Below the pieces are notes generated by a model. The model saw only the letters and a list, made by a program, of their open reading frames with translations, was not told the origin of the DNA and searched no databases. DNA of 64,000 nucleotides. Origin: a phage. The translations under genes were made by a program, and so were the position numbers. Positions 3,298 to 63,167 of the stretch are shown in pieces. The stretch lies in the NCBI GenBank assembly GCA_012338575.1, contig GCA_012338575.1_3616.1, one strand, 5' to 3'. How positions within the stretch are numbered: the first letter of the stretch is position 1; every line of letters starts with the position of its first letter.

Positions 3298-3351
3298 AAA
3301 ACTCAAGGGGGGCAAGACGTTTGCCCCACACAAAACAAAGAGGAAAACATT

Positions 3352-3796: not shown

Positions 3797-4168
3797 ATGG
3801 AATTTATTATTTTGGCCGTATTAGTTGCCTTGTTTAACGCCTGGATCGCTGGCAAGATGGGTAGATCCGCCTTTTTATGGTTTATTATATCTATTTTCCT
3901 GGGGGTGGTTGCAACTATTGTACTTGTTATCCTTGCAATTGTTGACAAAGGCGATAATAGAAAGGGTAAAGTATTTTCCGACCTGTATGACGCGCAAACA
4001 TTTGTCAACGCCTATTATAGTGATCTTCCAGTCTCCCTACGCTGCAGCCTTGCACAACAGGTTTTCGATGAAGCTAAAACCAGAGATCACGCCCATGAGA
4101 TTTGTTTAACTGAGGCGGATCGCCTATTTGAGAGGAATAGAAAATATGTGGGCCAGCCGTTTAAATAA
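3797..4168 (+). CDS. membrane protein (two predicted TM helices at N-terminus)
   Basis: ATG 3797 after AAAGAGG; MEFIILAVLVALFNAWIAG... hydrophobic. Confidence 0.5.
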   Translation: MEFIILAVLVALFNAWIAGKMGRSAFLWFIISIFLGVVATIVLVILAIVDKGDNRKGKVFSDLYDAQTFVNAYYSDLPVSLRCSLAQQVFDEAKTRDHAHEICLTEADRLFERNRKYVGQPFK

Positions 4169-9687: not shown

Positions 9688-9705
9688 TTTCTTAACTAAA
9701 CTATC

Positions 9706-9733
9706 AGGGGCTTTAAAAGGCCCCTTTCTTTTT
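9706..9733 (+). terminator. rho-independent terminator ending the rightward early block
   Basis: AGGGGC-tttaaaag-GCCCCT followed by TTCTTTTT. Confidence 0.65.
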
Positions 9734-10329
9734 GTCTGTATTTCTCCTACCACAAACGGCCCAGCCTGGCAAGTGGAATAATTGACTAGCCATCAATCCC
9801 ACACACTGTACAAATATACATGGAAAATAACTATTGCATAATTTTTCATTGTGTGGTAGCAAGTCCATTTTTACCCGTTTTCTCTCTCAAAATTGCACGT
9901 AATGCCGCTATTGCACAAAATTTAACCTGATGCACATCTTCAATATCTTGTCAACAACTAAAAATCTTTATAAGTCATACACTTACACACTCACAAAAGC
10001 GTGTTCTACGTGAAAAATCGAGTATAACTATAGCCGCCAGATCTCAGAATTTACGTACGCTCACCATTCTATAGTCTGCTAAGTATTTATTCCAACCATG
10101 GAATAACGGAATAGTCAATACCTGCATAAAATAATTATTCGTGTAAACTGCATAACATAAATCAGCTTATGTGTCAACATTCTTGGTAAACAGTCCGAAA
10201 TTGTAACGGTAAGTTATAATAAACAGAGAAATCTTTAGTCGTCTAATGTTTACTGTACATAACTATACTGACTGGAATCATTAGATGACTAAGAGAAAGA
10301 TAAGAAATAATTAACAATACAATTATTTT

Positions 10330-10520
10330 ATCTGTAACAATAAGGCAACTATGCAAACGAATATTATGGCGCGACGGAGTCGCGACATAATATAAAAGCA
10401 GTAACCATCACCCCCGTGATAGTTTGTCTGCAATCTATTAATCAGATCATAGTTGCCTTGTATTCAGTTAATCATGACATAACAAGCAAGGCAACTATAG
10501 ATCTGCTAATAGTTGCCCTG
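10330..10520. repeat. four copies of 12-bp motif ATAGTTGCC(T/C)TG in alternating orientation
   Basis: aaggcaactatg (10334), atagttgccttg (10451), caaggcaactat (10489), atagttgccctg (10509). Confidence 0.6.
10362..10392. repeat. 31-bp near-perfect palindrome
   Basis: TATTATGGCGCGAC-gga-GTCGCGACATAATA. Confidence 0.6.
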
Positions 10521-11359
10521 CTTTTATATTATGTCATAGGAACGCCCGAAGGGGTGACCTAGTCACCTGGCATAGCCAGCGAAAGATTATTAACTTGTTA
10601 ATTGTTAACTTGCTAATTGTTTTCATGCAAACGAATGTCATGGCTTATCCTATCTGTGTAAACAGTTAAGGTGTAAACTATCCAGGCGTAAACAGTCTAT
10701 GCGGGAACAATCTATACGTGAACAGTGAAACATGAAATAATAACAGTCGTTATTGTGTCGAAAGTGTATAAGGTGTATAAGGTGTCAGACAAGTTTTTCT
10801 CCTCTTTGTCAAGTGCTGCATGAAAATTTACAAACTGGTATGGTAGCATTTTTGCGGCCCTGTTTACATTCAGCGATGTATGTATAACCCTTGTTGTGTG
10901 GGCGTTTAGACGTCTGGACGGTCAGAAGTCCGCAGGTTAATATCTAATCTATTGGCTGCTAACTATATCCCACACAAATAGTAAGAAATATAATTGTTAT
11001 GTGCGTAAACGGTAACTCATGTTATCAATCCCTGTATGTATCGCCAGTGGTGCGCATAATGGGTATTATGTTAAATTGCCCGTAATGATAACTATTCTCA
11101 CAATGATAGGTATTCTCATTCAACCACATCAGATAGCTTGCAAATGTTGTGCCACTGTGTGAACGGCCTCGCCTATTAATTTGCCTCACTACCTCGATAT
11201 TTGAGAATTGTTATAAGAATGAGAAGTATTCCCATTCCGTCCGCCTGGCAGCACTCCTGTAGGTCCTGCAAGGACTCTAGCTGAAAGCTAGACCCTTCGG
11301 GCCTCCCTGTAGGTCAGGTCAAAATCGGGGTAGAACTGGGCCTATTTAGATATTTCTGG

Positions 11360-11505
11360 CTGGCTCTTCAGACATGTGTGGGAAAAGCCGACCCCTCCGG
11401 CGGCGGGGAGGGGGTCAATTAAAAAATTTACGTGGTGTATGAAGCGCTCTTCAGGTAAGGCATGTATTATGGGATGAAACCCTCTTCAGGTAAGGATATT
11501 TGTGG
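11360..11505. repeat. repeated CTCTTCAGG(TAAGG) motif cluster with GC hairpins
   Basis: ctcttcagac (11367), ctcttcaggtaagg (11447, 11487), more copies at 11883 and 12543; hairpin GACCCCTCC-ggcggc-GGGGAGGGGGTC. Confidence 0.5.
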
Positions 11506-12254
11506 GTGTGATATTTGCTGGAAAGCCAGATATGACGGGACTCCCGGCGGGGCAGGGGTAGTACAGACAGGGAAAATATGGGGGATGTAGTTGGGTGAAT
11601 TGATCAGACAGGTAGGGTATGGAATATGTTACAAGTATGTTAAATATGGAGGTCGAATATCTGTAGGATTTGTGTGTAAAATCAAAGACTTAAGTGGTGT
11701 TGTGGTATTTTCTATAAATAATTCAAGTTTAATAGGTAATATTTGCCTCTATCCACTTTGTGTGGTAAACAGATTCAGATGAGATTGGTTTACAAGTGTA
11801 TACATAATATACAAATTAAAGATACAAGAAACCCCCCTCCCCCTTCGGCTACCATTCACCTTTTCCTCTGACTGGTACTTAAACACTTATTCAGACTCTT
11901 CAGGTTATCACCCATATATCATATGGCAGTGACTGGTGTCCTCCGGCCCCTCTTTCGTCACCCGTCCGCTTCGCCATGCTAATGCCATAGCCAATGGTTC
12001 GGTTGTTCACCCTGTTCACTCAGGTGTATCTCCATACCCCTTCAAACCGAAGAGAACAGAAAACCCGAATTACTCGGTAAAAGAAAAGAGAAGAACTTAA
12101 TTTTATCAGGATAGGCAAGAATGTCAAGGCATGACTGCTCACTAAACAAGCAAACAGTCATGTGTGGGAGGTAAGTGATTGTGGTGGTAGGAAATTTAGT
12201 TGAAAGATGTGTTATAGGTGCTTCCAGCACTTTAGCCGGGCAGCTAATTGTGTG

Positions 12255-13057: not shown

Positions 13058-13378
13058 TTAGAGCTTTTTGCGGTCCAGAACCTGCTTACGTTGAATAAAG
13101 TGCATAAACGTCTCAGCCCATGAGCAATTCTGATACTCTCGGTACTTATGCATTGCCTGACGGCTCACACCGTATTCTGCAGCAAATGTGGAGACACGTA
13201 GAAAATCTGGCAGATCATCATCTTCAAAATATACAGTGCTGAGAGCAATATCGTTATCGTCGTATAGAACAATTTTCATAGATGATACCTCAAGATGTTG
13301 GTGGTTTAGGAAAACAGCCAAATTCTTTCTAAAGCGCTCTATAATGAGATTATCTGTACAAGGTATGCAATCGTGCAC
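13058..13378 (-). CDS. hypothetical protein (106 aa)
   Basis: ORF in leftward array. Confidence 0.4.
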   Translation of the reverse strand: MHDCIPCTDNLIIERFRKNLAVFLNHQHLEVSSMKIVLYDDNDIALSTVYFEDDDLPDFLRVSTFAAEYGVSRQAMHKYREYQNCSWAETFMHFIQRKQVLDRKKL

Positions 13379-49417: not shown

Positions 49418-49768
49418 TCAGTAGATGTTTTGTTTAATCTCTATTCCAAACTTTTTAAACGAGTCAGCTGCAAGCATGAATTTACGAGCCGCTGATGGAT
49501 TAGAAGTATGTACGAAAATCTTCACGTTGTCAACCACGGGAGGCTTACCGAATACAAATTTTTCCTCCAACATGGATAGGCAATCGTATCCTTCGAATAC
49601 TTCTCCTAGGTCGTTGTCCATATGCCACTCAGAAACGCGTCTGTAGAGCTTTCCCTTATCGTTAATAAAATCCATAAACTCGGAGGAATTCTTCAGCCAA
49701 ACAGCGTCTGGGAGCCCGTAATTTGACGGATCTCTTAAGTCATCTAGCCACACAATCAACTTCTTCAT
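49418..49768 (-). CDS. hypothetical protein (116 aa) between Sir2-like and ligase-like genes
   Basis: ORF; no family recognised. Confidence 0.45.
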   Translation of the reverse strand: MKKLIVWLDDLRDPSNYGLPDAVWLKNSSEFMDFINDKGKLYRRVSEWHMDNDLGEVFEGYDCLSMLEEKFVFGKPPVVDNVKIFVHTSNPSAARKFMLAADSFKKFGIEIKQNIY

Positions 49769-50700
49769 TGCATATAGTTCTCGTTGTGGAAATAGTAATC
49801 AAGTATCTCACGGCGTTCCTGCTCCAGGAGGCAGTTCCACACATCCTCTGTGTAATTGCTACGAATGAAGTTTACCATGCCGTAAAACTCTTCGTCAACA
49901 CGTTTAAAGATATCATCATCCCAAATCTTCCAAGCTTTACCCCTCATTACGGCCTTCCGTGCCAGATAGTATGGAGACTTGATCTTCAGCTGCAGATCAT
50001 AAGGGTAGTAAGGCTTACGAATCATATACCCTTCACCTCTTGTTTCTGCAGCTAATTCTTTTGCATAGCTGAACGGAATTTCACGCACAGTGTGAGGACG
50101 TTTTGCACCAAGGTATTTGGCAATCCCATCTAAAGCTGCTTCTGGTAGCATTATTCCAGAATCATTATATCTGCAACCTATCAAATATGCGCCATGATCT
50201 TCCTGAACAATATGCGGATCTGAAGGGTGACAAATTTCAAACATGAATGTCATGTTTTCATTGCCCATAACCTTCTTGATAAGATCTAAATTACCACATT
50301 GCTCTTGGATGGTTTCCTTTGCAAGGTTACAATATGGAGAATCAAGAGACCCGGTTGTTGAGAACAATAGTTCACCTTTATGAGATGATACCACACCGAG
50401 GAATCCGTTCTTTTTCTCTACCGCAGTAACAAGTTTACTGTCCGGTAGGTTGGTGGAGTTTTCTCCTAAGTTGAATACTTTTGTGAAAGGCCATGCCACA
50501 ACATTCCCCTCATTGCCAACAACAATACCTCGGCACTCCAGTAAACGCGGAGACAAATGCCACAGATTGTTGTAGAATACTTTTCTGGCATATTTATAGA
50601 TCTTTAATCCAAGATCTGGATAATACCGACTGGTTACAAGACCTTTGTCTACTAGGTCATCTGCATTAAAATACTTCATCATACGTTCCTCATTTGTCAT
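49765..50700 (-). CDS. RNA-ligase-like nucleotidyltransferase (Rnl2-like motifs)
   Basis: Motif I EKKNGFLG (KxNG), motif IV GEGYMIRKPYYPYD (cf. recalled T4 Rnl2 EGYVLKPCYP), motif V LKIKSPYY. Confidence 0.5.
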   Translation of the reverse strand: MTNEERMMKYFNADDLVDKGLVTSRYYPDLGLKIYKYARKVFYNNLWHLSPRLLECRGIVVGNEGNVVAWPFTKVFNLGENSTNLPDSKLVTAVEKKNGFLGVVSSHKGELLFSTTGSLDSPYCNLAKETIQEQCGNLDLIKKVMGNENMTFMFEICHPSDPHIVQEDHGAYLIGCRYNDSGIMLPEAALDGIAKYLGAKRPHTVREIPFSYAKELAAETRGEGYMIRKPYYPYDLQLKIKSPYYLARKAVMRGKAWKIWDDDIFKRVDEEFYGMVNFIRSNYTEDVWNCLLEQERREILDYYFHNENYMQ

Positions 50701-50800
50701 TTTGTCAGTCTATCCTGCCACACAAATAACCTAGTGTCAACACTTGAAATTAACAAAACAGTTAGGTATACTATCATTAAAATTAAAACGGAGGATTGCT

Positions 50801-51211
50801 ATGTCTAAAATGCTATATATCGTGCGTGGTCTGCCAGGGTCTGGCAAATCAACACTGGCAAATGCGCTATCTTTAGAAGGTCTGTATCCACATTTTGAGA
50901 ACGACATGTTCTGGTATGACGATGACGGCAATTACAACTGGGATGCAAGTAAAGTAACACTCGCAGCAAAATGGTGCAAAGATAACGTAGAAGATATGAT
51001 GCGTATGGGATACGACCGTATCGTGGTAAGTAATACGTTTACAAAAGAAAAACATGTGCAGGAATATGTTGACATGGCAATCAGTCACGGGTATAGTTAT
51101 ACCGTGATCGTGGTTGAAAACCGCCACGGTAATAAAAGCATTCATGATGTTCCAGACAAGGTTGTGGATCGTATGGAACGCCAGCTTAAAAACTGCATTA
51201 AACTTAAATGA
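50801..51211 (+). CDS. P-loop polynucleotide-kinase-like kinase
   Basis: ATG 50801 after GGAGG; LYIVRGLPGSGKSTLAN resembles recalled T4 Pnk kinase IILTIGCPGSGKSTWA. Confidence 0.5.
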   Translation: MSKMLYIVRGLPGSGKSTLANALSLEGLYPHFENDMFWYDDDGNYNWDASKVTLAAKWCKDNVEDMMRMGYDRIVVSNTFTKEKHVQEYVDMAISHGYSYTVIVVENRHGNKSIHDVPDKVVDRMERQLKNCIKLK

Positions 51212-51218
51212 GGAATGT

Positions 51219-51773
51219 ATGAAATACTTTGTAACAAGCGACACACACTTTCTCCACCAGCGGGTCATGGAGTTTGATTCATGTCAAAAACACAGATCTC
51301 AGTATGATCACAATCTTGACAGTATGAATGCGGGAATCATCGCCGAGTGGAACTCTGTTGTGTCACCTGCAGACACTGTGTTTCACTTGGGAGATATTGC
51401 GTGCACTAATGATAAGAATATCAACAAATTGCTCCCAGATGTTCTAAATATGTTGAACGGACATATTATTCTTGTTCGTGGTAACCATGACACAAGGACG
51501 ACTGTCAGAATTATGAAAGAGTTCGGTCATGATGTTGTAGATTATTACGAGCTTCGCCACAACAAGAATTTGATCTGTATGAGCCATTACCAGTTTGCAA
51601 AGTGGAACAGAAAGCCTCACGGATCAGTCCAACTGTTCGGTCATGCTCACGGAACCACACAGCAGTTGTTTGGCAGGCAGTTTGATGTCGGTTGGGATGT
51701 GTGGGGGAGACTCTTACCATTAGAAGAGGCATACCGTATTGCAATGAGTCTTGCTATTGACAGCGGGGAGTAA
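51219..51773 (+). CDS. calcineurin-like metallophosphoesterase
   Basis: ATG 51219 after GAGGAA; motifs SDTHF, HLGDI, LVRGNHD, GHAHGT. Confidence 0.6.
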   Translation: MKYFVTSDTHFLHQRVMEFDSCQKHRSQYDHNLDSMNAGIIAEWNSVVSPADTVFHLGDIACTNDKNINKLLPDVLNMLNGHIILVRGNHDTRTTVRIMKEFGHDVVDYYELRHNKNLICMSHYQFAKWNRKPHGSVQLFGHAHGTTQQLFGRQFDVGWDVWGRLLPLEEAYRIAMSLAIDSGE

Positions 51774-51820: not shown

Positions 51821-52171
51821 ATGAAAGATGGGGATAAGCTGCTATATCTTAAAGTCCCCCTTGAAATACTGTCTATGTCAAAAGTTTTGAATGACACAAC
51901 TGGGGAGGCTGTTGTTCTTGACTTATATGACAAGATCGTATACTGCTACCTGCACAACTGGTATAAGCTTGGAGGAAATTCACGCTTCACACCAAGCACA
52001 AGGAAAATTGCAGCAGATGTTGGGATAAAGAAAACAAAAGCAGCAGCGTGCGTTAAAACTTTAGAATGTGCAGGAGTGGTTGAAATATCCACACAAGGGA
52101 GAGGTAAAAGATGTACATTTTCCAAAGTTTTGCCACCAGAAGAGGTTATTCGAATGTCAACAACTGGTTAG
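51821..52171 (+). CDS. putative DNA-binding protein (HTH-like)
   Basis: TRKIAADVGIKKTKAAACVKTLECAGVV helix-turn-helix-like segment; adjacent to tandem palindromic repeats. Confidence 0.4.
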   Translation: MKDGDKLLYLKVPLEILSMSKVLNDTTGEAVVLDLYDKIVYCYLHNWYKLGGNSRFTPSTRKIAADVGIKKTKAAACVKTLECAGVVEISTQGRGKRCTFSKVLPPEEVIRMSTTG

Positions 52172-52242
52172 ACCAGTAAAAACTTAAATATCTGTACTAT
52201 AAGGATTCGTATGTTTTATGTTCGCTCTGGAACAGAGGTCAG

Positions 52243-52286
52243 TAACTGTCCGTGATACGGACACTAACTGTCCGTGATACGGACAC
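52243..52286. repeat. perfect tandem duplication of 22-bp unit TAACTGTCCGTGATACGGACAC (each with palindrome GTCCGT-gat-ACGGAC)
   Basis: Two identical adjacent copies; followed by AT-rich GTAC-repeat region 52320-52410. Confidence 0.8.
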
Positions 52287-52429
52287 ATAAAGAATATAAC
52301 TAAAATAACTAAATAATAAAAAATAAAAGATCTAGTACTTATGGTACTAAGTACATATACTTAACTTATGTAGAATATACTAGATCCTAAGTACCATGTT
52401 TTAAAATTATTACTTACTATAGGTAGTGT

Positions 52430-52700
52430 CGGCCCTTCATTGGCACTCGCCTACGAGGGGCGAGATGCCGGGCCTCCTTGGTGCACACAATAACAGAAGT
52501 GCATACATGCAGGTCTGTTAACATGTGTGGGAGCGAAGCGATAGCGCAGGCCAAAGGCCGAGCACTGATGTGGACCACCGACGAAAGCTTGCCAGCTCCG
52601 TAAGGAGTCGGTTGAGAGTCTCCCGCGCGAGCTTGGATGAAGTTTATGTGTGGAAACTGACAAGAAGGCCCCTAAATCGCTCCACAGCTATATGAACTAT
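52430..52700. other. GC-rich hairpin-dense non-coding region (candidate structured RNA)
   Basis: No plausible ORF; long hairpin GGCCC..GGCA-CTCGCC-tacgagg-GGCGAG-a-TGCC-GGGCC and several palindromes in otherwise AT-rich DNA. Confidence 0.35.
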
Positions 52701-52789
52701 ACCAGGTAATGCAATCGCACCAGTTTGATAGAAAAGCTCGTTACAAAGTGATACAGTGAGTTTTTCTATAACTTGAAGAGGAGGCAGCT

Positions 52790-53368
52790 ATGGGTTCACG
52801 CAAAGATGACCGTGAAAAGATTGCAAAACGTTATCAGAATGAAGAACAGATGGAGAAAACTTTCAAGTGGAAGCCTGGTTTCCAGCGTAATCATTCTAAC
52901 GCTCGTGATCGTAAGCATCCGGATAAGTGGCTAACACCGCCAAATGATGGCATGCAGGTTGGTGATGAGAAGGAGATGTCACCTGGAAAAGATGGCAACT
53001 ACATTCGCACTAAGGAAGCTGGTCCAAAGGATGACAGCTATCTTGTAGATAAGGTTCTTAATGGTATTGATGTAGATGTTGACACTGCACGAAACCTTTT
53101 TCTTGGTTGGTATCGTACAGGGTTTTTCGACATCAAGGCTATTCGTCGTGTTTGCGATATTAAAAAGTCTGCCTATGATGATGACTCCCTACATCGCACT
53201 CTGAGACAATACTCAGAGAGATACGGTCATCCAGTTATCACTCTTGACGATATTAACGAAGTGATGTATCATGCAGAGGTTGTTGCAGGTAGATTCGGTG
53301 ATGCATATCTAGATATCCTTTCTGCAAAGGATGAGGTAATGTTAAATAAGATTTACTATGAACGCTGA
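52790..53368 (+). CDS. hypothetical protein (192 aa)
   Basis: Strong SD GAAGAGGAGG. Confidence 0.6.
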   Translation: MGSRKDDREKIAKRYQNEEQMEKTFKWKPGFQRNHSNARDRKHPDKWLTPPNDGMQVGDEKEMSPGKDGNYIRTKEAGPKDDSYLVDKVLNGIDVDVDTARNLFLGWYRTGFFDIKAIRRVCDIKKSAYDDDSLHRTLRQYSERYGHPVITLDDINEVMYHAEVVAGRFGDAYLDILSAKDEVMLNKIYYER

Positions 53369-53886: not shown

Positions 53887-54176
53887 GGTTGTTTTCGTGT
53901 ATCATGATGAATATCCAATTTAAAGATGAATTTGATGGCTTTATCTCCGGATGCTTTGAAACAGGGTTCGGAGAAGACTGAGTTCCCTTAGAGGGCTTGA
54001 TAGTGCACCACACTTAAAATGGTAGGGGCAGCCAGCACATGACGATGTGACCCCAGCCAACCTGTAATAAGGTCGAGCCTGAGCGCGGTAATGGGTATAG
54101 CTGGAAAACCCACTTGTTGGGTCTTGCTGGTCCAGGACGCTGGACAAGTCGCAGGGAATACCACCCTGCGGCGAAC

Positions 54177-54205
54177 TTGACAATCAGTATTTGCTATGAT
54201 AAAAT
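54177..54205 (+). promoter_or_regulatory. sigma70-like promoter (TTGACA, 17 bp, TAAAAT)
   Basis: TTGACA 54177-54182, TAAAAT 54200-54205. Confidence 0.5.
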
Positions 54206-54668: not shown

Positions 54669-54743
54669 GCCCTGTTAGCTTAGTGGATAAAGCAGCGGCC
54701 TTCTAAGCCGTTGACACTGGTTCGAGTCCAGTACGGGGTGCCA
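54669..54743 (+). tRNA. tRNA-Arg (anticodon TCT)
   Basis: Manually folded cloverleaf: acceptor GCCCTGT/ACGGGGT, D-arm GCTT-AGTGGATA-AAGC, anticodon loop CTTCTAA, T-arm ACTGG-TTCGAGT-CCAGT, CCA encoded. Confidence 0.8.
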
Positions 54744-54873
54744 AGTTCTTTTTAATGTAGCTTACTTTAGCAGAGTAAATCTTCGGCAAGTGGCGGTAAC
54801 CACTTTACCGATACCTCATAGTTAGTGGTGAGAACACTAGCTATTTTAAAAAGAATTTAAATATTAGTATTTA

Positions 54874-54961
54874 GGTGAGTTAATTCCGTAGGGGTAGCGG
54901 GGCAGACTGTAAATCTGTTATCATTGCGATTCGGGTGGTTCGACTCCATCACTCACCACCA
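54874..54961 (+). tRNA. tRNA-Tyr (anticodon GTA), long variable arm
   Basis: Acceptor GGTGAGT/ACTCACC, anticodon loop CTGTAAA, T-loop GGTTCGACTCC, CCA encoded; 85 nt plus CCA. Confidence 0.8.
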
Positions 54962-55075
54962 AATTTATATTTTTAAATGCATAAATCATACAGGTAATGG
55001 CATTGATATTTATCGTCGTTTATACTAGTCACTAACTGCTCGAAAATCAGTGTCATTATCAGTATTGTTTATAAA

Positions 55076-55166
55076 AGAGGGTAGGGAGCAATGGTGCTCA
55101 AGCGGTCTTGAAAACCGTCCCGTTGAGGATGACTCGATGATGGTTCGATTCCATTATCCTCTGCCA
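55076..55166 (+). tRNA. tRNA-Ser (anticodon TGA), long variable arm
   Basis: Acceptor AGAGGGT/ATCCTCT, anticodon loop CTTGAAA, T-arm GATGG-TTCGATT-CCATT, CCA encoded. Confidence 0.75.
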
Positions 55167-55264
55167 TATTGTTGACCTTGTAATTAAGCGAAAGCCGGAA
55201 GCAGAACCGGATTATCAAATGTTACAGTCGTCATCGCCGACTAGCAACATGGTCAACATACTGA

Positions 55265-55361
55265 GCTAGGTAAGCCCTTTGGCAAGGGCGAGGATTTTTA
55301 ATCCTGAAAATAGACGAGGTAGTCGTTGAATACATAGGTGGTTCGATTCCATCACCTAGCA
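55265..55361 (+). other. aberrant tRNA-like element (canonical acceptor, D- and T-arms; anticodon region replaced/expanded)
   Basis: Acceptor GCTAGGT/ACCTAGC, D-arm GCCC-TTTGGCAA-GGGC, T-arm GGTGG-TTCGATT-CCATC, but middle is AGGATT-TTT-AATCCT hairpin plus about 30 extra nt; no encoded CCA. Confidence 0.4.
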
Positions 55362-55368
55362 CCTTTTT

Positions 55369-55444
55369 GCTGATGTAGCACAATTGGTAGTGCAATTGAT
55401 TTGTAATCAATAGGTTGCAGGTTCAAGTCCTGCCATCAGCACCA
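55369..55444 (+). tRNA. tRNA-Thr (anticodon TGT)
   Basis: Acceptor GCTGATG/CATCAGC, D-arm GCAC-AATTGGTA-GTGC, anticodon stem ATTGA/TCAAT loop TTTGTAA, T-arm GCAGG-TTCAAGT-CCTGC, CCA. Confidence 0.85.
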
Positions 55445-55445
55445 T

Positions 55446-55520
55446 GGCCCTGTAGCTGGAAGGTTCAAGCAAGCGACTCATAATCGCCAGACGGTGGTTC
55501 AATTCCACCCAGGGCCACCA
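55446..55520 (+). tRNA. tRNA-Met (anticodon CAT; elongator or Ile2-type)
   Basis: Acceptor GGCCCTG/CAGGGCC, anticodon loop CTCATAA, T-arm GGTGG-TTCAATT-CCACC, CCA; paired 1:72 argues against initiator. Confidence 0.75.
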
Positions 55521-55531
55521 AATAGTAAATA

Positions 55532-55608
55532 CTCCGCGTAGCTCAGCTTGGTAGAGCGCCTGATTTGGGATCAGGAGGTCGAGTGTTCGAATCACTCCGT
55601 GGAGACCA
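55532..55608 (+). tRNA. tRNA-Pro (anticodon TGG)
   Basis: Acceptor CTCCGCG/CGTGGAG, D-arm GCTC-AGCTTGGTA-GAGC, anticodon stem CCTGA/TCAGG loop TTTGGGA, T-arm GAGTG-TTCGAAT-CACTC, CCA. Confidence 0.85.
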
Positions 55609-56712: not shown

Positions 56713-57137
56713 TGTCTAAGATTTACGGACCGTGTTCTGAAAAGCAGAAGATGATCCTCGAAAACGATGCAGATATTTTGGTAATCGGCGGTGCCGCAGG
56801 GTCTGGCAAGTCGTTCCTTTTGCAGTTGATGCCGCTTAAAATTATTGATGACCCCCACAGCTCTGTGGTTATGTTCCGAAGAACAACTCCACAGTTGGAG
56901 GGTGAGGGTGGACTATGGCCTAAAGCAGTAGCTATTTATAGTGATCTGCCTGAAAACATTAAGCCAAAGTTCAGAGAGAAGGATCATAAGTTCATTTTTC
57001 CACGGTTTGATCCTAACACTGGTAAGTGGGATAGAAGCAAAAAGGGAGCTGTTGTAAAATACTGCCACATGGAGTATGTACAAGATAAGCTTAACCATCA
57101 AGGGCTTGAGTACACCATGGTTTGCTTCGATGAGGGT
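56712..57137 (+). CDS. terminase large subunit, exon 1 (ATPase Walker A/B)
   Basis: Walker A GGAAGSGKS, Walker B MVCFDEG; reading frame hits stop at 57138-57140 inside intron. Confidence 0.75.
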
Positions 57138-57456
57138 TAATTTGTAGCTCTCGTAAAACCTCCCTAATTGCGGGGAAATCTTTATTATTGACACCACCAA
57201 CCTGTTATGGTAACATGATAGAGGCTTCGAAGAGAGATCGAAGGTATGGTAACAGTGTGTTAATTTAGATAATCCGCAGCGAAGCATCCGAGGGGATGAA
57301 CGTTCAACGACTAGTCGAAAGACGTAGAATCAAGCGATTCGAAACGGGAGGGTAAGCGGTTGTTGTCGCTTATAAGATATAGTCTGGTCTGCATGGAGAC
57401 ATGCAGCTGCCTGAAAATGGCGGGGCAAGACTAGCGACCTTGCCCGAACATAAACG
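57138..57456 (+). mobile_element. group I intron (ORF-less, td-like) interrupting terminase large subunit gene
   Basis: 319 nt without ORF; begins TAATTTG after exon T, ends ...GAACATAAACG; contains AGTCTGGTCTGCATGGAGACATGCAGCTG, AACGACTA, CGAAACG strings recalled from T4 td intron; splicing 57137/57457 is in frame. Confidence 0.75.
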
Positions 57457-62159: not shown

Positions 62160-63167
62160 ATGATTACTCGTAAAGATGAATTTGGCATTGTTGATTTAGG
62201 TGCTACTCTGGACCTTGTTCCGCGTCAATTCCGCCTGATTACTGGTATGGATCTGTTCGAAACTCGTCTCGGCACCTCAACAATTGCTCAGATCGAGCGT
62301 GTTGATGAAGTTGTAACAGACATTCCGGCACGCCGTCGTGGTGGTGAGCGTAACTACGTTGGTAATGAACGTGCTCAGGTTAAAAACCTGAACATCCCGT
62401 TCTTCCCTCTGGATAAAGGCATCACTGCTGCAGATGTTCAGAACTTCCGTCGTTACTTCACTCCTGATGCTCCGAAAACTGTTCAGGACGTAGTAACCCG
62501 CGTTGTTCGCCGTATCCGTGTTTCCCATGAAGCACTGCGTGAGAAAGCGCTGTTCCAGGCTATTCTGGGTAAATCCTATGCACCTGGTGACGCTACCTGC
62601 CAGTATGACTACTACACTCTGTGGGGTGTGGATCAGAAGTCTGTTGAGATTGACCCTGCAAAAGCAGATCAGGACCCTATGGAGGTTCTGGAAGAAGCTC
62701 GTCTGCACATCGCACTGCAAGCTGGTGATAACGCAGCTGGCTATCGCATCGTAGCCCTGTGCTCACCGGAGTTCTTCAGTGCTGTTACCCATCACCCGCT
62801 GGTAGAACTGGCATACACCTATTACGGCTCTGCTCAGGAACCTCTGCGTCGCCGTCTGGGTGCGGGTGGTCAAGACAGCGTATACCGTGTGTTTGAGCAT
62901 AAAGGTATCACCTTTATCGAAGATATCTCTGGCAATATTCCTAAGAAAGAAGCTCGCATTCTGCCGATGGGTATTGATCAGATGTTCCAGCTGCACTTTG
63001 CTCCGGCAGACGATGTTAACGAAGCAAACACTCCAGCACAGGAACTGTACATGTGGTATAAACACTCTGCATACCTGCGTGAAGAGAAGATTGAATCTGA
63101 AACTTCCATGCTGGCAGTTAACACCCGCCCAGAGCTGGTTGTTAAAGCAACTCTGAAAGGTGACTAA
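62160..63167 (+). CDS. major capsid protein (lambda E-like family likely)
   Basis: 335 aa (lambda E about 341); strongly biased high-expression codons (CTG, CGT, GGT); followed by the strongest terminator in the window. Confidence 0.6.
   Translation: MITRKDEFGIVDLGATLDLVPRQFRLITGMDLFETRLGTSTIAQIERVDEVVTDIPARRRGGERNYVGNERAQVKNLNIPFFPLDKGITAADVQNFRRYFTPDAPKTVQDVVTRVVRRIRVSHEALREKALFQAILGKSYAPGDATCQYDYYTLWGVDQKSVEIDPAKADQDPMEVLEEARLHIALQAGDNAAGYRIVALCSPEFFSAVTHHPLVELAYTYYGSAQEPLRRRLGAGGQDSVYRVFEHKGITFIEDISGNIPKKEARILPMGIDQMFQLHFAPADDVNEANTPAQELYMWYKHSAYLREEKIESETSMLAVNTRPELVVKATLKGD

Follow-up and report, generated by a model that had tools for sequence, protein, structure and literature searches.

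A probable folded non-coding element common to rV5-like phages and a family of 13-14 kb Escherichia coli plasmids

The 64,000-nucleotide (nt) stretch of phage DNA considered here (“the window” below; contig GCA_012338575.1_3616.1 of GenBank assembly GCA_012338575.1) is part of a Vequintavirus (rV5-like) genome, and includes a GC-rich, hairpin-dense island at 52428-52677, where 620 nt separate two genes on the plus strand. All of the rV5-like phages compared retain the island, and it has homologues on small E. coli plasmids in which base pairing is preserved through sequence change; it is therefore very likely a functional non-coding folded element and probably, if with some reserve, one that acts as RNA. 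The best explanation overall, to which we would give a probability of about 0.5, is a non-coding element working through the fold of one strand, most probably that of a plus-strand RNA. If this is correct, rV5-like phages carry a conserved structured RNA, wrongly annotated as a gene in the type genome, that is outside the RNA family databases. Phage therapy and biocontrol collections for E. coli make wide use of phages of this group.

Pairing and conservation of the island

The evidence for a fold comes from comparison of the phage island with its plasmid copies (loci L114, L116-L121, L123, L125, and L127-L135, on plasmids such as NZ_CP020521.1, CP148565.1, NZ_CP035869.1, CP134895.1, and NZ_CP178698.1). 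Between phage and plasmids there are six pairing-preserving double changes, in two hairpins, and almost no broken pairs. The first is the 5' hairpin cassette, H1 (52428-52477, plus strand), with an outer stem GGCCC/GGGCC, an inner stem GGCA-CTCGCCT/GGGCGAG-TGCC, and a loop ACGAG. In plasmid loci L114 and L125, GGCA/TGCC is replaced by GTCA/TGAC, CTCGCC/GGCGAG by CTCTCC/GGAGAG, and GGCCC/GGGCC by GGCCT/AGGCC. Three of the 16 pairs are doubly changed and none is changed on one side only; across seven distinct sequences the 16 are 100% paired, as against 34-50% for slid controls, and none of 500 shuffles reaches the covariation score. The second hairpin belongs to what is called here the E core (52568-52629, plus strand), which consists of ATGTGGA, a stem of ACCGAC (52577-52582) with GTCGGT (52607-52612), and then GAGAGTCTCCCGCGCG. 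Three of its six pairs are doubly changed, from CCGAC/GTCGG in the phages to CTGCC/GGCAG in the plasmids, with 97.9% of cells paired. The 24-nt loop it closes, GAAAGCTTGCCAGCNCCGKAAGGA, is the same in phages and plasmids except at its N and K positions, apart from one further C-to-A change in a single phage copy (L085). Covariation of a stem around a fixed loop is characteristic of a folded single strand in which something recognizes the loop. The plasmid stem CTGCC/GGCAG presumably resembles a type I-F CRISPR repeat, and a plasmid cassette (B) presumably resembles boxA; neither is in the phage copy.

A first-pass annotation of this DNA, made from its letters alone, had suggested a candidate structured RNA at this position, with covariation analysis as a check and conservation of pairing in homologous phages as the point on which it might fail. 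Because the stems are almost invariant within the phages, pairing there is uninformative as a refuting test; there is no signal among phages alone, and pairs kept through two-sided changes, the mark of a structured single strand in general, were found in the phage-plasmid comparison only. An alternative AGCTTGC/GCGAGCT helix, preferred by RNAalifold on the phage sequences, was rejected: it is not kept in the plasmid copies, and the CCGAC/GTCGG hairpin, which does covary, was adopted in its stead.

In composition and hairpin content the island is as that annotation described. Its GC content is 0.56 (0.55 over 52430-52700), compared to 0.30 in the upstream spacer (52172-52427), 0.41 in the downstream stretch (52678-52789), and 0.41-0.42 in the two flanking genes. 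It peaks at 0.587 in 150-nt windows, against a mean of 0.426 and standard deviation of 0.044 for the 64 kb, in which comparable peaks are found only at 53945-54200 and 62612-62916. The plus strand is predicted to fold at -109.4 kcal/mol (z = -3.05), with none of 200 dinucleotide shuffles equally stable; for the minus strand z = -2.27. The long imperfect hairpin that it named is indeed present (GGCCC at 52431, GGCACTCGCC at 52442, GGCGAGATGCC at 52459, GGGCC at 52470), as are three palindromes (GTGCAC at 52481, TGCATACATGCA at 52500, GTTAAC at 52517). A proposed long-range pair between GGAGC and GCTCC fared less well: both strings exist (52530 and 52679), but their pairing is not conserved, with one compensatory change in phage B9-1 and broken pairs in FV3, SYGMH1, L096, and a divergent relative from the IMG/VR collection.

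The region around the island matches 119 phage records at 80-98% identity, nearly all of them Escherichia phages of the genus Vequintavirus (rV5, FFH2, FV3, V18, and others), and the island is present in all 119. Taken alone, it is 95-99% identical in 84 of these; the 651-nt region including its flanks is mostly at 90-95%. Conservation drops 3' of about 52677. At the 5' end, homology to the IMG/VR relative, the one found in that collection, begins exactly at GTCGGCCC, and the repeats and AT-rich spacer upstream are exchanged there for unrelated sequence. Some database records have misleading titles: 18 designated “Campylobacter phage” (MG0656xx) belong to Vequintavirus and match this region of the E. 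coli phage at 93-96% identity, and the 137.6-kb E. coli “plasmid” CP057073.1 in PLSDB is likewise a Vequintavirus genome.

Beyond this genus the searches found little. A metagenome scan with a 17-mer returned 99 loci, of which five, all close relatives, have the element and the others are chance matches; further scans of genome and viral collections, based on the capsid, gave no hits. With R1, a covariance model of the E core, nothing was detected in the syntenic loci of three related genera (Mydovirus BIS47, Seunavirus SSE121, and Phapecoctavirus tuntematon), and only Vequintavirus was matched when the island cassettes were searched against a phage database. Among 5,426 complete E. coli genomes, the island matched four plasmids and no chromosome; PLSDB yielded more plasmids. 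As judged from these searches, the element appears to be confined to Vequintavirus and this one E. coli plasmid family, a distribution that fits exchange between partners with a common host. A host origin was considered and rejected: neither the island, nor a 2.5-kb non-coding region elsewhere in the window, nor the second GC-rich island at 53945-54200 has a chromosomal E. coli match. Nor is the island a paralogue of that second one, since self-BLAST against the window found no other copy.

That the island is a small protein gene is highly improbable, as the first-pass annotation had already concluded from the lack of any convincing reading frame. Only short open reading frames (ORFs) are present, one of them antisense. 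Another, ORF78 of rV5 (rv5_gp074; 52525-52695, plus strand, 56 amino acids), is carried as a hypothetical protein in rV5 and several other records; its frame is open in 15 of the 17 aligned homologues, and both indels within it are multiples of three. Stop codons interrupt it in the other two, however, at codon 3 in B9-1 and internally in the IMG/VR relative, and it would begin at a GTG without a Shine-Dalgarno sequence. Variable columns in the alignment are divided 17/20/17 by codon position, with no third-position bias in any frame on either strand, and most substitutions in the ORF78 frame change the residue. The frame is not kept in the homologous plasmid segments, and most annotators have left the region empty.

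The island also matches none of the RNA classes searched for; the first-pass annotation had likewise failed to match it to tRNA, tmRNA, RNase P RNA, or a group I core. None of the Rfam 15 covariance models, among them those for tRNA, tmRNA, RNase P, group I introns, C4/CI RNA, RNAI, and riboswitches, matches it at gathering thresholds; under permissive settings the best hit is rli43, with 21.4 bits where the gathering score is 100, and mainly over the AT-rich spacer. ARAGORN finds no tRNA or tmRNA in the island, and five whole plasmids have no Rfam match at E ≤ 0.1.

The phage island and 19 plasmid copies share a modular order: one 5' hairpin, internal hairpins, one core, and a tail, which in most plasmid copies ends in CCCCTAAAT as it does in the phage. 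In plasmids the 5' hairpin may be H1 or an unrelated one, A2; the internal hairpin cassettes number from zero to four; and the core may be the phage type, E1, or a second type, E2, in which a different hairpin is enclosed by ATGTGGA, kept in every copy, and the full GAGTCTCCCGCGCG, kept in most. Model R1 finds a single E core in the window, at 94.6 bits, and one in each E1-type plasmid, at 86-91 bits, always co-oriented with the downstream operon. A further cassette type, D, consists of three adjacent small hairpins; its eight variants have a median identity of 66%, the minimum free energy (MFE) structure agrees in six of them, and a cUUCGg loop closes several.

Such an arrangement might also be produced by selfish or neutral modular repeats, similar to miniature inverted-repeat transposable elements or BOX elements, that spread by recombination and fold merely because they are palindromic. 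The same 8-mer, TGTGTGGG, bounds every plasmid cassette and could serve as the recombination junction; plasmids with capsid proteins ≥92% identical differ in how many cassettes they have and in what order; and related cassettes are found at a second site in the phage. Repeats of this kind would not be expected to be limited to these plasmids among 5,426 complete genomes, to occur with just a single E core and a single 5' hairpin on each replicon, in fixed order and orientation, or to persist in every one of the phage genomes with near-invariant stems and loop, and we consider a functionless origin unlikely.

RNA, folded DNA, or duplex site

Several observations favor a plus-strand RNA. All single-sided stem changes yield G·U pairs on the plus strand, and H1 has an invariant U·G pair; UUCG loops occur in the related D cassettes; and the element has the same orientation as its flanking genes in both phage and plasmids. 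In rV5, the island-flanking genes fall in one long proposed transcription unit, genes 27-81 (PMC3606486). The island would accordingly be transcribed as part of a long rightward unit that starts near 50.75 kb and continues through tRNA, terminase, and head genes. In the transcript, H1, H2 (a second hairpin, described below), a linker, the single E core, and the CCCCTAAAT tail would follow one another, with the covarying E stem, flanked by the conserved single-stranded ATGTGGA and GAGTCTCCCGCGCG, displaying its nearly invariant 24-nt loop. The loop could then be the recognition site for a factor, either protein or complementary RNA, that acts on both replicons, and phage and plasmid might be coupled through it, for example if the plasmid is a satellite that senses or interferes with its helper. 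This last step, a loop recognized in phage-satellite cross-talk, is offered tentatively.

A number of points count against this interpretation. The covariation is convincing in kind but thin in amount, coming from a small number of independent lineages, with two or three plasmid variants compared to the phage clade. Among phages alone it does not exceed that of shuffled alignments, the RNAalifold covariation term being +0.16, and variable columns are not depleted in stems (19/86, compared to 40/164 elsewhere; p = 0.75). A simple scan of 52100-52900 found no sigma-70-like promoter or intrinsic terminator on either strand, such as would mark a discrete small RNA gene (defined processed ends would be another mark); directly 3' of H1 is CCTTGGTGCAC, and no intrinsic terminator was found within the island. 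The literature search found no Vequintavirus transcriptome study. Folding energy distinguishes the strands only weakly, the plus strand being favored in 12 of 18 elements, for totals of -2280 (plus) and -2216 (minus) kcal/mol, and the plasmid A2 hairpin is terminator-like on the minus strand. The plasmid element has the iterons on one side and the sigma-70-like promoters of the rep operon on the other, and no good plus-strand promoter was found upstream of it. An inverted 13-mer, described below, fits a double-stranded DNA site as well as it does RNA-RNA pairing, and the dependence of the plasmids on a helper phage is itself inferred from sequence. Of the first-pass proposal of a structured RNA outside the known classes, the non-coding character, the lack of database matches, and the fold (two covarying hairpins) hold up; its preference for RNA over single-stranded DNA, and for a discrete transcript, goes further than these data.

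Folded DNA is expected to covary just as RNA does, and the element could instead be a single-stranded DNA origin signal: an array of hairpins, exposed as the adjoining repeats and AT-rich DNA open, at which priming or helicase loading takes place. A satellite might have copied it to use the same host or helper primase. Known signals of this sort include the G4-type and phiX-type single-strand initiation (ssi) sites, the G-site next to oriR of R1, and ssiA/ssiB of RSF1010; G4 oric and the R1 G-site, like the element here, are stable hairpin arrays with conserved unpaired bases, which in these plasmids stand beside an iteron origin. The plasmid element follows 5-8 direct iterons and precedes the rep operon, with a Rep of the HTH_36 type; the phage island follows an HTH_36 gene, two to four repeats, and an AT-rich stretch. 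The weak asymmetry of folding would suit either nucleic acid, and the linker includes GCGAAGC (52533-52539), which forms an unusually stable DNA mini-hairpin. rV5 also encodes a T7 gp4-like primase-helicase (PMC3606486). Against this, comparison of G4 positions 3861-4030 with the phage and plasmid regions gave only chance matches of 10-12 nt (E = 0.38-6), that to the complementary-strand origin being 10 nt at E = 6. The phage repeats are perfect palindromes, which are more typical of operators than of iterons, and UUCG loops and plus-strand G·U pairs are better suited to RNA. RSF1010-type ssi sites come in opposed pairs, unlike the cassettes here, which are all on one strand. The rV5 origin is unmapped, and skew analysis there merely tracked transcription direction (PMC3606486). 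On this evidence a single-stranded DNA signal is possible but doubtful.

Alternatively, the element could comprise one or more protein sites in double-stranded DNA, such as a pac site for the helper terminase or a set of shared operators, with the hairpins as incidental inverted repeats. Circular permutation of rV5 DNA (PMC3606486) implies headful packaging from a pac site; the intron-bearing terminase gene belongs to the same transcription unit, with the island about 4.5 kb upstream of it; and the plasmids, which have no recognizable terminase, would on this account need a signal from the helper. A shared 13-mer found in either orientation, and the 3.6-fold over-representation of TGTGTGG with clustering in regulatory regions, would also be at home in duplex DNA. 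However, a protein bound to duplex DNA does not require double changes across a 24-nt loop or in a bulged, imperfect 11-bp stem. H1 and E1, the sole long blocks common to phage and plasmids, are missing from many plasmids, which have A2 or E2 instead, and therefore neither is a universal pac signal; the motif that is common to the phage and all of the plasmids is a 24-mer at 11196-11219, outside the island. A pure duplex site such as pac is unlikely, as is the wider class of duplex sites.

Plus-strand RNA remains the preferred form, and two known RNA systems offer partial parallels. Like nut and put antitermination sites, the island has a linear motif followed by a hairpin with covarying stem and fixed loop, early in a very long operon. 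The phage copy lacks a boxA, however, a boxA-like CGCTCTTTG being found only in plasmid cassette B, and the plasmid element is upstream of the operon promoters rather than downstream. Like RNA I/RNA II of ColE1, it is hairpin-rich, adjoins a plasmid origin, and has stems kept by compensatory change as related plasmids diverge in sequence, and the D cassette has three adjacent stem-loops; but there is no Rfam RNAI match, no convergent promoters of a convincing kind were found, iterons and a Rep are present on the plasmids, and the phage copy is inside an operon. The sequence at 52405-52425 presumably resembles a T7 promoter; we know of no phage RNA polymerase in the rV5-like group.

The plasmids and a possible satellite relationship

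The plasmids that carry the element are circular, 13.2-13.7 kb in length, and non-mobilizable, apart from a single record of 39.6 kb, probably a trimer with a unit of about 13.2 kb; further copies are on 13-14 kb contigs of other E. coli assemblies. Their GC content (0.44) is close to that of the window (0.43). Each has a 2.2-2.9 kb unannotated non-coding region, within which the element is found. Among the 15-18 genes, searches with PHROGs and Pfam recognized a major head protein, a tape measure protein, a Dit-like protein, a tail-completion (Neck1) protein, and an HTH_36-type Rep, which matches PHROG replication-initiator families; there are also two small helix-turn-helix (HTH) proteins and about eight proteins without an assigned function. 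The same searches, in which several small proteins could not be assigned, recognized no genes for a terminase, portal, sheath, tube, or lysis. The capsid family is limited to E. coli, with 18 clusters at ≥82% identity and about 500 members, typically on contigs of 13.2-14.3 kb; one member is from a human gut metagenome.

A predicted 83-amino-acid plasmid protein (p83) is 67% identical to the 73-amino-acid product of window positions 13058-13279 (minus strand). This phage gene has no Pfam family, and its plasmid counterpart is located between the capsid and Dit-like genes. Similarity is lower elsewhere: the capsid protein of the plasmids and the product of 62172-63134 are 23% identical, and the N-terminal domain of the plasmid Rep has a weak pairwise similarity (23% identity, E = 2e-5) to the 116-amino-acid HTH_36 protein encoded upstream of the island.

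A 13-mer, ATTGCATTACCTG, is common to all of the plasmids and the phage, and matches at 19 of 20 positions when extended to CAGGTAATGCAATnGCACCA. Every plasmid has one, roughly 75-95 nt 3' of the E core and in the same orientation. In the window there is one exact copy (0.15 matches expected, allowing up to one mismatch), at 52703-52715 on the minus strand, so that it is inverted relative to the E core; most other Vequintavirus differ from it at two of the 13 positions. As a result of the inversion, plus-strand transcripts of phage and plasmid would be complementary here, with phage positions 52701-52720 matching the complement of the plasmid transcript at 19 of 20.

The plasmids, then, lack recognizable essential virion and packaging genes, and are tied by sequence to a candidate helper: through the 67% identical protein, the island cassettes, the 24-mer, and the 13-mer. 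From their sequences they look like undescribed helper-dependent satellites of Vequintavirus, and no paper was found on these plasmids or linking them to rV5-like phages. Extending the plus-strand RNA interpretation, the island might be the helper's copy of a new modular family of structured RNAs shared between lytic Vequintavirus and capsid-encoding plasmid satellites, in which the loop would bind a phage factor, the stretch at 52701-52720 would pair with the satellite transcript, and infection would be sensed or countered at the RNA level. This is a speculative scheme, to which we attach a low probability. If it is true, the element would connect these lytic phages, for the first time at the sequence level, with a group of 13-14 kb E. 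coli plasmids that is common yet unstudied; the plasmids would be candidates for a new plasmid-type satellite of a virulent coliphage, and the shared element a concrete, mutable handle on how a satellite senses or exploits its helper.

The closest precedent in logic, though in logic only, is P4 and P2. This satellite and helper share short non-coding elements, P4 can live as a plasmid, and a processed structured RNA (CI, of the C4 type) controls P4 genes. The pair considered here differs in several ways: no C4 antisense RNA or other Rfam match was found in phage or plasmids, the helper would be a strictly lytic 137-kb myovirus with permuted DNA rather than a cos phage, and the satellite candidates bring capsid, tape-measure, and Dit-like genes of their own. 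A second parallel is the pseudo-ToxI locus of PhiTE, an rV5-related phage; it is reported to be a non-coding RNA locus homologous to, and a mimic of, an antitoxin RNA encoded on a plasmid (PMC3475682), and by analogy may be a precedent for RNA-level cross-talk in the rV5-like group. ToxI is a tandem array of short repeats; the island is a single composite structure in which no tandem or direct repeat was found, and there is no ToxN-like gene near it.

Other parts of the island, its surroundings, and related elements

Between H1 and the E core are a variable-length hairpin, H2 (52484-52529, plus strand), and a linker (52531-52567, plus strand). The MFE structure of H2 has the stems CACACA/TGTGTG, TAACAGA/TCTGTTA, and TGCA/TGCA, its 3' strand bearing a TGTGTGG motif (52524-52530). 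In rV5, typing phage 5, and Murica, 18 nt are deleted and a shorter stem, CACACATG/CATGTGTG, remains. Pair 82-99 of H2 is doubly changed in the IMG/VR relative, from A-U to C-G; the position is unpaired in eight sequences. Besides GCGAAGC, the linker has a small hairpin, GGCC-AAA-GGCC (52549-52559, plus strand), invariant in 17 sequences, and linker-related sequence (GAGCGTAGTGCGATAGCAC...) is found in E2-type plasmid cores. The 3' tail (52630-52677, plus strand) includes a second TGTGTGG (52647-52653) and ends with CCCCTAAAT (52669-52677).

The plus-strand gene upstream (51821-52171) encodes the 116-amino-acid HTH_36 protein (Pfam, 2.3e-5), which is labeled in relatives either “replication initiation protein” or “transcriptional regulator”; that downstream (52790-53368, plus strand) encodes a 192-amino-acid protein without a Pfam family. 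Both are confined to the genus. Following the upstream gene are two copies (52246-52264 and 52268-52286) of a palindromic repeat, CTGTCCGTGATACGGACAC, of which alignment shows three or four in relatives and which is annotated as a repeat_region in phage nomine; from its sequence, it may be an operator or an iteron. From there to the island is an AT-rich spacer (52287-52427) with inverted repeats of the GGTACTAAG type. On the other side, the conserved stretch at 52730-52789, almost invariant in 14 sequences, includes an AU-rich plus-strand hairpin (AGAAAAGCTC at 52730-52739 with GAGTTTTTCT at 52758-52767), which had no terminator score in the simple scan, and the Shine-Dalgarno sequence GAGGAGG (52778-52784) of the 192-amino-acid gene.

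Related elements are found elsewhere in the window, chiefly at 9700-12250. This 2.5-kb region, probably the “non-coding” box of the rV5 paper, is almost free of ORFs of 60 or more amino acids, the exceptions being three short ones at the right, and a strong sigma-70-like promoter on the minus strand (12127-12100) reads into it. It has GTAAACAG-type repeats at 10650-10730, a G/C-rich hairpin at 11390-11417, and several TGTGTGG sites. At 11258-11302 (plus strand) is a D-type three-hairpin cassette (GGTCC..GGAC, TCTAGC..GCTAGA, CCC-TTCG-GGG), with 78% identity to the post-core cassette of plasmid locus L115. The 24-nt motif at 11196-11219, around TTGAGAATTGTTATAAGA, has TGAGAAT/ATTCTCA repeats on either side (11095-11235). 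Each of the nine plasmid non-coding regions that were compared has a single motif 96% identical to it, oriented opposite to the cassettes. The motif could be the binding site of the small protein common to phage and plasmids.

The second GC-rich intergenic island (53930-54180; peak GC 0.587) is directly 5' of a near-consensus promoter (TTGACA ... TATGAT, at about 54168-54200). It is 90-97% conserved in two relatives, with a folding z of about -2 on both strands; it has no Rfam match, no likeness to the first island, and no match in E. coli.

TGTGTGG occurs 30 times in the window, compared to 8.3 expected, and is clustered at 9.8-13 kb and 49.7-52.7 kb (examples are at 3326, 8497, 8840, 51798, 52524, and 52647). 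Its complement, CCACACA, is directly 5' of several plus-strand Shine-Dalgarno sequences: seven of the 30 sites precede a plausible start, compared to 8.8% for permuted heptamers. The position of these sites before ribosome-binding sites is suggestive but weak evidence that they could be targets for UGUGUGG.

Beside the island, at 49765-51773, is an RNA-repair-like set of genes: an Rnl1-type RNA ligase on the minus strand, a P-loop AAA_33 kinase, and a metallophosphoesterase. The ligase gene is upstream of the island's flanking genes and is transcribed divergently from them. A tRNA cluster follows 2 kb downstream, and tRNA callers disagree over 54669-55608: ARAGORN predicts a tRNA with a four-base anticodon at 55265-55363 and a tRNA-Ser at 55076-55166 that is not in the Rfam list, and Rfam a weak tRNA at 54874-54958 that is not found by ARAGORN. 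Beyond these, at 57128-57406, is a group I intron (83.6 bits), presumably one of those described in the rV5 terminase gene.

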